Below are positions 56,714 to 58,738 of a stretch of DNA of 64,000 bases, piece after piece; within the stretch, counting starts at the first letter, position 1, and each line of letters begins with the position of its first letter. The stretch covers positions 149 to 64,148 of the forward strand of contig JACPHP010000012.1 of assembly GCA_016188605.1 (NCBI GenBank). Reading direction: 5' to 3'. The DNA comes from Candidatus Spechtbacteria bacterium. Its GTDB lineage: Bacteria; Patescibacteriota; Minisyncoccia; Spechtbacterales; JACPHP01. The position numbers and the translations under genes are program-made. The notes under the pieces were generated by a model, which worked only from the letters and a program-made list of their open reading frames with translations, was not told the DNA's origin and made no database searches.

Positions 56714-58609
56714 CTAGCCAGACTTAAACACCTTCATAAAAGTCTCGGCATCAATATTTACATGCCCCATCGCCTTCATGCGCTTCTTTCCTCTTTTTTG
56801 TTTTTCAAGTAGCTTTTTCTTGCGCGTGTAATCACCGCCGTACAAATAGCCAGTTACGTCCTTACTCATCGCTGACTTAGTCTCTCTCGCAATCACCTTT
56901 CCGCCAATAGTCGCTTGAATCGCGACTGCAAAATTTTCTGGATGAATAACCTCTTTAATTTTCTCCACAAGTTTTCGCCCATCTCTTTCAGCGCGAAGGC
57001 GAGGAATAATACGCGAAAACGCCTCAACTTTATCTCCCGCGAGCATTACATCTAGCTTCACAACATCTCCGGGCTGGTCGCCAATAACATCGTACGATAA
57101 CGACGCGTACCCAGAGCTGATACTCTTTAATTTGTCATAAAAGTCAGTAATAATTTCCGCGAGCGGAGCCTCGTAAGTGATACGAAGTGTTTGGCCGCCG
57201 AGAGTCTGCGTATCTTTGTAATCTCCTCTAATAGTTTGCAAAAGTTGCATCACGCCGCTTAAATATTCCGGCGGAGTCATAACTTCCATGCGCACCCACG
57301 GCTCCAGTGTCTCTACAATCTCCGTGGGATCGGGAAATTTGGCAGGTGTGTAGATAGTAATTATCTCGCCATTTTTCTTTTTTATTTGATAAATGACAGA
57401 AGGTGTGGTTACAACTATTTCTAGATTGTACTCGCGGCGCAAACGCTCAAGCACAATCTCCATATGCAGCATTCCCAAAAATCCGCACTTCCATCCACGG
57501 CCAAGCGCCTCTGAATACTCCTGTTCGTAGTAGAGCGCGGCATCGTTGAGCTTTAACTGCTCCAGCGCTTCTTTCATTTCATCAAACGCGCTTTCCTCGC
57601 CCGGAAAAATGCTGGAAAAAACCGCTGGCATCGGATCTTTGTATCCCGGCAAAGGTTCGTAAGCACGCAAGTCTTCCCGTTCATGCGTAATAGTATCACC
57701 GATTTTTGCGAGCGAAATCTCTTTGAGGCCGGTAGCAATGTAGCCAATTTCTCCGGCGCGAAGTTCCACAGACGGTATGGGAGCTGGTGAAAACGTGCCG
57801 ACTTCTTTAATCTCGCTCTCCTGACGAGAAACCATAAGATGCATTCGCTCGCGTGAATGAACGACGCCGTCTACCACGCGCACGTGCGCCACTACCCCTT
57901 TGTATGAGTCGTACATAGAATCAAACACCAACGCGCGCAAAGGTGCCCCAGCATCACCACCCGGTGCCGGCACCGAACGCACGACTTCATTTAGCAACTC
58001 CTCAACCCCCTCGCCGGTTTTAGCAGAAATACGAAAAATGCGATCGGGTAGTAAATTAAATGTTTCAAACACGTCAAGGATTTCACGTTCTACATCATCG
58101 GGGCGTGAATGAGGCAAGTCAATTTTGTTTATGGCGGGAATTATTGTTAGCCCCTGCGCGATTGCCACGCGAAGATTTGCTAGCGTTTGAGCTTGCACAC
58201 CCTTAGTGGCATCGACAAGCAAAATCGCGCCTTCCACCGCGGCAAGCGCGCGCGAAACTTCATAAGAGAAGTCCACATGCCCTGGCGTATCAATCAGGTT
58301 GAGTTCGTACTCATCAACGAATAACGAATCCTTTAACGAATTTACGAATTCTAAACTGTCTGTCATTCGTTTATTCGTAATCGATTCGCTATTCGTTGAT
58401 GAAACCGGTCGATATCGCATTCTAACAGGCTGCATTTTTATGGTAATCCCGCGCTCCTGCTCAAGCTCCATGGTGTCTAAATACTGCTCGTGCATCTTTC
58501 TTTTCTCCACGGTTCCAGTCAGCTCCAAAAGCCGGTCGGCTAAAGTCGATTTACCGTGATCCACGTGAGCTATAATTACGAAGTTTCTAATATGTTCCTG
58601 CATATACAT
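56714..58609 (-). CDS. lepA: Elongation factor 4 (LepA). It carries an in-frame insertion of about 30 aa between the G2 and G3 regions.
   Basis: Contains IIAHVDHGKSTLADR and YELNLIDTPGHVDF. The insertion (PVSSTNSESITNKRMTDSLEFVNSLKDSLFVDE) is encoded by the palindromic segment 58311-58402. Confidence 0.9.
   Translation of the reverse strand: MYMQEHIRNFVIIAHVDHGKSTLADRLLELTGTVEKRKMHEQYLDTMELEQERGITIKMQPVRMRYRPVSSTNSESITNKRMTDSLEFVNSLKDSLFVDEYELNLIDTPGHVDFSYEVSRALAAVEGAILLVDATKGVQAQTLANLRVAIAQGLTIIPAINKIDLPHSRPDDVEREILDVFETFNLLPDRIFRISAKTGEGVEELLNEVVRSVPAPGGDAGAPLRALVFDSMYDSYKGVVAHVRVVDGVVHSRERMHLMVSRQESEIKEVGTFSPAPIPSVELRAGEIGYIATGLKEISLAKIGDTITHEREDLRAYEPLPGYKDPMPAVFSSIFPGEESAFDEMKEALEQLKLNDAALYYEQEYSEALGRGWKCGFLGMLHMEIVLERLRREYNLEIVVTTPSVIYQIKKKNGEIITIYTPAKFPDPTEIVETLEPWVRMEVMTPPEYLSGVMQLLQTIRGDYKDTQTLGGQTLRITYEAPLAEIITDFYDKLKSISSGYASLSYDVIGDQPGDVVKLDVMLAGDKVEAFSRIIPRLRAERDGRKLVEKIKEVIHPENFAVAIQATIGGKVIARETKSAMSKDVTGYLYGGDYTRKKKLLEKQKRGKKRMKAMGHVNIDAETFMKVFKSG
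58311..58402. repeat. 92-nt palindromic ACGAAT-rich element inside the lepA coding sequence. Its arms are TCATCAACGAAT / ATTCGTTGATGA. A related copy overlaps the lepA start at 58608-58645.
   Basis: Seen directly. CATCAACGAATA(A/G)CGAATC occurs at 58313, at 58621, and inverted at 58390. Confidence 0.65.
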
Positions 58610-58738
58610 CAACGAATAGCGAATCGATTACGAATAAACGAATGACGCGTCAATAAGTGTATGCTACGGGAATTTCAGACAATAGAAAAGGGCAGACGTT
58701 TATGTCTGCCCTTCGCTCTTGCCCCGCAACTGCGGAGC

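Follow-up and report, generated by a model that had tools for sequence, protein, structure and literature searches.

In the Candidatus Spechtbacteria bacterium whose contig JACPHP010000012.1 supplied the 64-kb stretch of DNA analyzed here (the window), the lepA gene, encoding LepA (elongation factor 4, EF4), contains within its coding sequence a palindromic element made of ACGAAT-like hexamers, and a solitary arm of the same kind lies in the 5' leader of the gene (Table 1). The G motifs AHVDHGKS, DTPGH, and NKID were all found in the window's LepA, its homologues showed the GTP_EFTU, EFG_C, and LepA_C architecture (PF00009, PF00679, and PF06421), and LepA structures in the PDB matched it at E = 3e-58 on either side of the insert. 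A total of 8000 homologues were obtained, the top ones coming from Spechtbacterales/Parcubacteria, including metagenome-assembled genomes (MAGs) of Portnoybacteria, i.e., from the candidate phyla radiation (CPR; Patescibacteria). The lepA start was placed at the ATG at 58603-58601 by homologous N-termini; further in-frame starts occur just 5' of it (ATG, 58609-58607; TTG, 58612-58610).

Table 1. Features of the lepA locus; positions are counted from the first nucleotide of the window.
Feature	Position	Strand	Description
lepA (EF4) coding sequence	56714..58603	minus	629 codons plus stop, intact (open reading frame list, homologues, PDB matches)
Insert within lepA	58313..58411 (99 nt)	minus	33 codons (RPVSSTNSESITNKRMTDSLEFVNSLKDSLFVD); DNA and protein alignments
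Palindromic element without an open reading frame of its own	58311..58402 (92 nt)		inverted repeat; arms 58313-58349 and 58365-58400
Partner arm in the lepA element	58362..58401		perfect match to the solo arm; inverted repeat search
Solo arm	58607..58646		40-nt inverted repeat, 100%; arm profile E = 4e-11
Terminator-like hairpin of the upstream gene	58687..58714	minus	delimits the short leader of lepA in which the solo arm lies

The original prediction held that lepA carries extra in-frame residues in its G domain, and alignment of orthologues bore this out. Where the window has 33 codons, its closest relative (contig L001, encoding P0001, with 93.7% protein identity) has only the 15 nt ACTTTGGAAGGAAAA, which specify the five residues TLEGK, a net difference of 28 residues that leaves the reading frame unbroken over 629 codons. 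P0001 and the next relative, P0002 (73% identity), are both ~28 residues shorter at this one place, and a search with the profile of the repeat family's arms found none in the lepA loci of these two closest relatives; an insertion relative to close orthologues, as had been proposed, is therefore confirmed. An ancient, lineage-specific loop was excluded, as orthologues exist that lack the insert. The ratio of nonsynonymous to synonymous substitution rates (dN/dS) between the window's lepA and that of the closest relative was 0.027; since dS was 1.4, the closest relative available is still not very close. In this relative, a LAGLIDADG_3 homing-endonuclease-like open reading frame (ORF) overlaps the start of lepA (L001, 544-1383), the place at which the window has its solo ACGAAT arm, and the regions upstream of lepA in the two are non-homologous.

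Alignment with solved structures showed that 31 residues stand in place of the 4-residue turn joining strands beta2 and beta3 in the G domain (A. aeolicus LepA, 2ywe, residues 68-71). In an AlphaFold model of LepA built from 120 homologues (mean predicted local distance difference test score, pLDDT, of 83), residues 70-95 had pLDDT below 50 and were flanked by the confident strands 59-64 and 99-105; a run on 21 sequences (pLDDT 64) was set aside in favor of this model. As modeled, the insert lies at the tip of the G-domain beta2-beta3 hairpin, where the solved LepA structures also place it, and forms a low-confidence surface excursion. Since its length and frame keep LepA intact and its site is a flexible hairpin tip, the insert would be tolerated by the protein.

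The 92-nt palindrome that had been reported was recovered by an inverted repeat search, but its arms are not the perfect ones that had been claimed: they match exactly only in the terminal 13 nt, complementarity over 25 nt is 88%, and an insertion or deletion of 1 nt is present in one spacer. Each arm consists of four NCGAAT hexamers (arm profile E = 3e-9 and 4e-11), the family consensus ATCAACGAATAACGAATCnnnTACGAATnTACGAAT stands at both ends as terminal inverted repeats, and the 15-nt center (TTTAGAATTCGTAA) resembles the 3' end of the ORF found in ACGAAT-type cassettes (see below). The sole ORF across the element is the frame of its host, so that in size (below ~500 bp), ends, and absence of coding capacity it corresponds to a miniature inverted-repeat transposable element (MITE). 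As RNA, it is predicted to fold into a hairpin of -40.9 kcal/mol. No Rfam match was found at the element, the only Rfam matches in the window being three tRNAs.

The solo arm is complementary to its partner at 40/40 positions. That the match extends even to the spacers is unusual and suggests that the arm was recently copied on the spot, by inverted duplication or by gene conversion. The 18-mer described by the original prediction at the lepA start is real and forms part of this inverted copy; however, the copy does not cover the likely start codon, ending 3 nt upstream of that ATG and taking in the alternative ATG, with its outer end, TTGATG, facing lepA. A site directly 5' of a start codon is the usual place for members of the repeat family. 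A 19-nt pattern with 18 specified bases was found three times in the window, compared with 0.14 expected, and the family arm profile gave exactly three matches in the 64 kb (E = 4e-11, 4e-11, and 3e-9); three arms in the window are more than chance would give. The lepA leader showed no sigma-70-like promoter, and the window's exact 24-nt arm had no match in a metagenome scan.

Assemblers can be confused by inverted 40-mers, and the locus might accordingly be an assembly or sequencing artefact in which the repeated 40-mer misled the assembler, or lepA might be a decaying, non-functional pseudogene. The genome is of metagenome type and the exact LepA protein of the window, looked up with three alternative starts, has no record elsewhere, as an artefact would have it. 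However, joining the repeats in the alternative way would truncate lepA, whereas the present joining yields an intact ORF that is collinear with orthologues; a comparable insert, likewise in this loop and frame, is present in an independent genome (L110); and a dN/dS of 0.027 argues against a pseudogene. We regard error or decay of this sort as very improbable.

Relatives of the element were sought in one genome per species, using three hexamers of the arm as the query, and at least 120 family loci were found. By their titles, 86 of the 120 listed loci belong to the CPR; the remainder are for the most part Bacteroidota, with a few Omnitrophota, and a handful are chance-like. Several MAGs gave 5-7 listed loci each, with up to 8 arms within one 8-kb stretch. 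The plan of the family is a conserved A beside TCA, NCGAAT, 1 nt, NCGAAT, 5 (4-6) nt, NCGAAT, 2 nt, NCGAAT, and then the mirror image to TGA with a conserved T beside it; an arm opens with ATCA and continues with four NCGAAT hexamers whose starts are 7, 11, and 8 nt apart. The A and T that flank TCA and TGA may represent a palindromic duplication of AT or else belong to the repeat itself. The listed loci contain 126 elements, namely 69 full palindromes (65-142 nt, mode 68) and 57 single arms, and a profile built from 123 arms gave 214 arm matches in 0.84 Mb of family loci.

Most elements are wedged between genes, typically separated by 0-15 nt from a start codon and by 0-11 nt from a stop codon; they are found between tandem, convergent, and divergent gene pairs alike, and sometimes supply the TAA stop or the ATG start of a neighboring gene. 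Nine upstream genes stop at the TAA of ACGAATAA, 11 nt inside the element, and several downstream genes begin at the ATG of the terminal TTGATG. At 8 of 189 element ends (L004, L011, L034, L065, L073, L076, L080, and L105), three of them in one genome, the sequence runs on as (G)GAGCGAAGCGA-NN-ATG, so that a GGAG resembling a Shine-Dalgarno sequence and the next gene's start codon follow immediately on the element. One match to the search pattern, in an Idiomarina MAG (L090), has no relation to the palindromic family and is instead a long microsatellite of (ACGAATA)n in tandem. The element itself was judged to be neither a tandem repeat nor a CRISPR array, as its arms occur only inverted, and carriage by phages is unsupported, a scan of viral contigs having given two chance-like matches that lacked the terminus and the fourth hexamer.

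When left arms were compared with reverse-complemented right arms, agreement was 91% at hexamer positions and 40% at spacer positions, indicating that it is the hexamer array that is conserved and not a hairpin, which is a signature of protein-binding sites. Such conservation would suit a DNA-binding protein, and the elements might be regulatory DNA of the host rather than selfish DNA, serving as operator arrays or RNA hairpins, while the 5' arm and the coding arm of lepA would form a long-range mRNA duplex for control of translation or of decay by RNase III. In accord with this, copies lie immediately 5' of the start codons of highly expressed genes (dnaK, tuf, fusA, and rpsH), and in the predicted minimum-energy fold of 421 nt of lepA mRNA the solo arm in the leader is base-paired with the insert's first arm, displacing the local hairpin (-40.9 kcal/mol) in favor of 40 bp of perfect complementarity. 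If it forms, this leader/coding duplex might reduce the expression of lepA or serve as a target for RNase III, and the paired arms might bound an invertible segment of 205 bp. Copies are, however, found just as much at the 3' ends of genes, in convergent spacers, and within coding sequences; copy locations vary between genomes, including relatives; the arms also flank a nuclease gene and co-vary with the nuclease; the spacers are non-complementary, so that a hairpin is not the conserved feature; and L110 has the lepA insert without the 5' solo arm. A regulatory function as the basis of the family is thus improbable.

The nuclease gene was found in five loci from different genomes (L045, L054, L112, L066, and L089), in which the arms flank an ORF of ~130 aa that matches PDDEXK_3 (PF13366; E = 5e-33) and GxxExxY (TIGR04256; E = 7e-34) and whose catalytic residues, D, E, and K, do not vary. 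The complete cassette measures ~0.47 kb and consists of two inverted arms around the GxxExxY (PD-(D/E)XK) gene, the last codons of the ACGAAT-type ORF (N-S-stop) coming from the first hexamer of the right arm. The 68-nt palindromes match the two ends of the cassette minus the ORF, and the lepA element likewise has the two inverted arrays of a short motif (3-5 copies in cassettes generally), with 15 nt in place of the GxxExxY ORF. A metagenome search with three ACGAAT-type GxxExxY proteins yielded 46 loci. Among 38 relatives with at least 50% identity, at least three NCGAAT hexamers were present on both sides of the gene in 21, on one side in 13, and on neither in 4. Relatives near or below 50% identity have the same layout of inverted arrays with the motifs ACTAAT, TACGAAA, GTACGAA, ATACAAA, and CTACAAA, and a GxxExxY copy embedded in RecG is flanked by ACGCGGAC arrays, one embedded in LepA by ACGCAGA arrays. 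Judging from these sequences, arm motif and GxxExxY protein clade travel and change together. Relatives of the window's GxxExxY protein form 5145 clusters (50% identity) at E <= 1e-3, with 63 of the best 150 longer than 300 aa, and a search for a solved structure related to the protein by sequence gave none.

The window also contains a complete cassette of a subfamily other than that of the lepA insert (4450-4995), in which an intact 135-aa GxxExxY/PDDEXK_3 gene (4507-4914, minus strand) is flanked by inverted ACACGGAT/ACACAGAT-type arrays. Palindromes at 11384-11530, 34886-35042, and 47067-47165 are arrays of short motifs, each situated between two tandem minus-strand genes; one of them is built from TGACATTT motifs, with 31-nt perfect arms, and the other two are of xCAAAT type. 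These are probably ORF-less copies of other cassette subfamilies. In other genomes, the spacer between rpsG and fusA is a site for ACGAAT-type GxxExxY cassettes, which were found there in at least five genomes or contigs (L112, ~1900-2390; L124; L127; L128; and L132); L112 has an ORF-less copy in its fusA-tuf spacer as well (4725-4796).

LepA is not alone in carrying the element. Thirteen elements lie inside long ORFs, and at least nine of these are clear in-frame inserts: LepA (twice), RecG, DnaG, TsaD, RNase HII, a class II aminoacyl-tRNA synthetase, MnmA, and LeuRS, the last assigned by eye and the six hosts from RecG to MnmA confirmed by Pfam. The second LepA, that of L110, has the element in the same loop and the same frame; considering that it is only 56% identical to the window's LepA, this points to independent events. 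All nine in-frame cases read TCA-ACG-AAT (S-T-N-N-E-S ... D-S-L-F-x-D), the frame that is most often stop-free. A peptide search for additional in-frame copies gave no candidate with three shared words. The view that such inserts are rare could not be sustained: at least eight other housekeeping genes carry the same element in frame, and 45 of 120 CPR LepAs have 10-44 extra residues in the same loop, their peptides looking like translated motif arrays of other families.

Whole GxxExxY domains also occur in frame and without a stop codon in the LepA beta2-beta3 loop, in at least seven clusters (P0069, P0156, P0170, P0172, P0185, P0192, and P0207), of which P0069 (L169, 1501-3771) was found in two independent assemblies. 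In RecG, the domain recurs in eight clusters (including P0147, P0153, P0167, and P0177) at a single site, after helicase motif II and before the C-terminal helicase domain. The RecG of L005 (1-2086) also has an ACGAAT half-element in frame further downstream, and asparagine synthase (P0196) and O-antigen ligase (P0171) are further hosts of the domain. Recurrence at the LepA loop and the RecG site could result either from target-site homing or merely from selection for permissive loops. An intein was rejected for the window's LepA, as its 33-residue, repeat-derived insert is too short and has neither a Hint domain nor a nuclease ORF.

The presence of whole PDDEXK_3 domains in exactly this loop raises the possibility that a complete GxxExxY cassette homed into LepA as a preferred target and then lost its ORF in place, the arms being its scar, in which case mobility of ORF-less forms would be unneeded. 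The like recurrence at one site in RecG and the resemblance of the center of the lepA element to the 3' end of an ACGAAT-type ORF would be expected from such a history. However, ACGAAT-type ORFs stop inside the right arm, so that LepA would be cut short by any such cassette in its complete form, and the cassettes embedded in LepA belong to other clades, have different arm motifs, and are free of the stop codon. Moreover, ORF-less copies that are near-identical in spacers and center were found at different sites, with different flanks, within one genome (L020 and L103), which indicates that the ORF-less forms themselves are copied. In-place decay is thus unlikely, and entry as an ORF-less copy is favored because the stop codon of the ACGAAT-type ORF would have truncated LepA.

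We consider it probable that the lepA insert is a gene-less, MITE-like member of the family whose complete form is the GxxExxY cassette. The original prediction of a domesticated coding MITE stands insofar as the element belongs to a multi-copy, palindromic, ORF-less family and keeps the frame; tolerance is what the data show, and domestication is not upheld. From sequence comparisons, we infer that the nuclease recognizes the arrays and drives their copying. In the mechanism that we propose, the cognate GxxExxY nuclease, or a complex holding it, would bind the hexamer arrays and mobilize in trans both cassettes and ORF-less copies, and insertions would persist only in intergenic spacers or, if length and frame fit (TCA-ACG-AAT = S-T-N), in permissive surface loops. 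In the window genome, an ORF-less copy would have landed in the tip of the LepA G-domain beta2-beta3 hairpin, to be translated as ~28 extra, probably flexible residues that are tolerated rather than adapted. The solo arm would be a second and very recent local copy, arising by inverted duplication or gene conversion, with a possible 40-bp mRNA duplex with the coding copy as a side effect.

Several observations weigh against this interpretation. Within the 64-kb window there is no ACGAAT-type nuclease gene and there are no ACGAAT arms beyond the three described. No target-site duplication is visible, and no direct repeat of 2 nt or more was found beside 67 full copies. Compared with the empty site, the filled lepA site is a replacement (99 nt for 15 nt) and not a clean insertion, at a dS of 1.4. 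In principle, the palindromes could be what deletions within cassettes left behind, without being mobile in their own right. Finally, no activity, be it transposition or homing, is known for the GxxExxY family, whose function is catalogued as unknown (PMC3424549).

Among known systems, the closest in behavior are the Rickettsia palindromic elements (RPEs), which occur in frame in unrelated housekeeping genes of Rickettsia, where they contribute an extra peptide at positions compatible with the fold, and also between genes (PMC10969869). Like these, the lepA family consists of short palindromes that lie in frame in conserved protein genes of bacteria with reduced genomes and in intergenic spacers as well. 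Unlike RPEs, which are ~150 bp long and have no known gene-bearing partner, the lepA family resides in an unrelated host lineage, the CPR, is apparently unrelated in sequence, and has arms that are arrays of a 6-nt motif shared with a nuclease cassette; the likeness is claimed for the mode of action only.

Repetitive extragenic palindromes (REPs) are defined by a conserved GTAG or CGTC tetranucleotide ending a hairpin unit of 20-40 bp (PMC3733652). REPs and REP doublets forming hairpins (REPINs), mobilized by REP-associated tyrosine transposases (RAYTs, IS200/IS605-like), share with the lepA family the coexistence of doublets and single units, the dense wedging into intergenic spacers, and a single associated protein family, and the element could be supposed to be one of them. 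However, no GTAG, CTAC, CGTC, or GACG occurs within it, its arms are tagless hexamer arrays with non-complementary spacers (40%) rather than hairpins, the gene between the arms encodes PDDEXK_3 and not a Y1 transposase, and copies lie in frame within genes. Mobilization by a RAYT is hardly credible.

Bacterial MITEs such as Correia and Nezha resemble the lepA family in being small, ORF-less, and multi-copy, with terminal inverted repeats and ends shared with a longer, gene-bearing element. The partner here, in contrast, is a PD-(D/E)XK protein of ~130 aa and not a DDE or other recognized transposase, no target-site duplication is visible, and the ends are motif arrays whose motif differs by nuclease clade. 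Homing endonuclease genes and inteins are selfish nuclease genes that return to the same sites in highly conserved proteins, and the family is like them in that LepA and RecG each have a single site at which whole GxxExxY domains are found again and again. Unlike them, it has neither an intron nor a Hint domain, the insert presumably stays in the mature protein, and the cassettes are bordered by inverted motif arrays and give rise to ORF-less copies; homing remains putative. A homing endonuclease of the PD-(D/E)XK type is known, namely I-Ssp6803I. Queries of the searchable literature, made by sequence, by name of the family, and by topic, did not turn up the repeat family, its CPR-wide spread, its motif-array ends, or its GxxExxY partner, nor any account of flanking arrays, ORF-less derivatives, or in-frame insertion for GxxExxY genes, though work beyond that literature is possible. 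Selfish GxxExxY cassettes make up a widespread and apparently undescribed family.

Two other kinds of repeat were observed in the window. A perfect 23-nt inverted repeat at 31075-31129 contains TTAGCACTC-N9-GAGTGCTAA, which we take to be the consensus of CIRCE (controlling inverted repeat of chaperone expression), the HrcA heat-shock operator. Two perfect GC-rich hairpins (10746-10789 and 12494-12540) have the common core GGAGGGTCGGTCCGTCCTG and may represent either a small terminator that is repeated or some other family of repeats.

To our knowledge, in-frame selfish repeats in essential genes are known mainly from Rickettsia, where they have no known mobilizing gene. The present findings place similar behavior in an unrelated and very large bacterial radiation, together with a candidate partner gene. 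More broadly, and as a tentative proposal that we hold at somewhat less than even odds, GxxExxY proteins (PF13366) may be the mobility or homing enzymes of an unrecognized class of very small selfish cassettes, whose ends are motif arrays co-evolving with the nuclease and whose cassettes and ORF-less copies have colonized the intergenic spacers of CPR genomes and permissive loops of their essential proteins, LepA and RecG recurrently; the arms at lepA might then act as a switch at the level of RNA or by DNA inversion. GxxExxY/PDDEXK_3, an abundant family, would thereby gain a testable function, and, since the motif changes with the clade, it may be a nuclease that reveals its DNA specificity in the sequences flanking its own gene. 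For annotation, the inserts and fused nuclease domains inflate or split CPR gene calls. Finally, lineage-specific insertions in CPR proteins find in such cassettes a concrete origin, and many that are as yet unexplained would be accounted for in this way.

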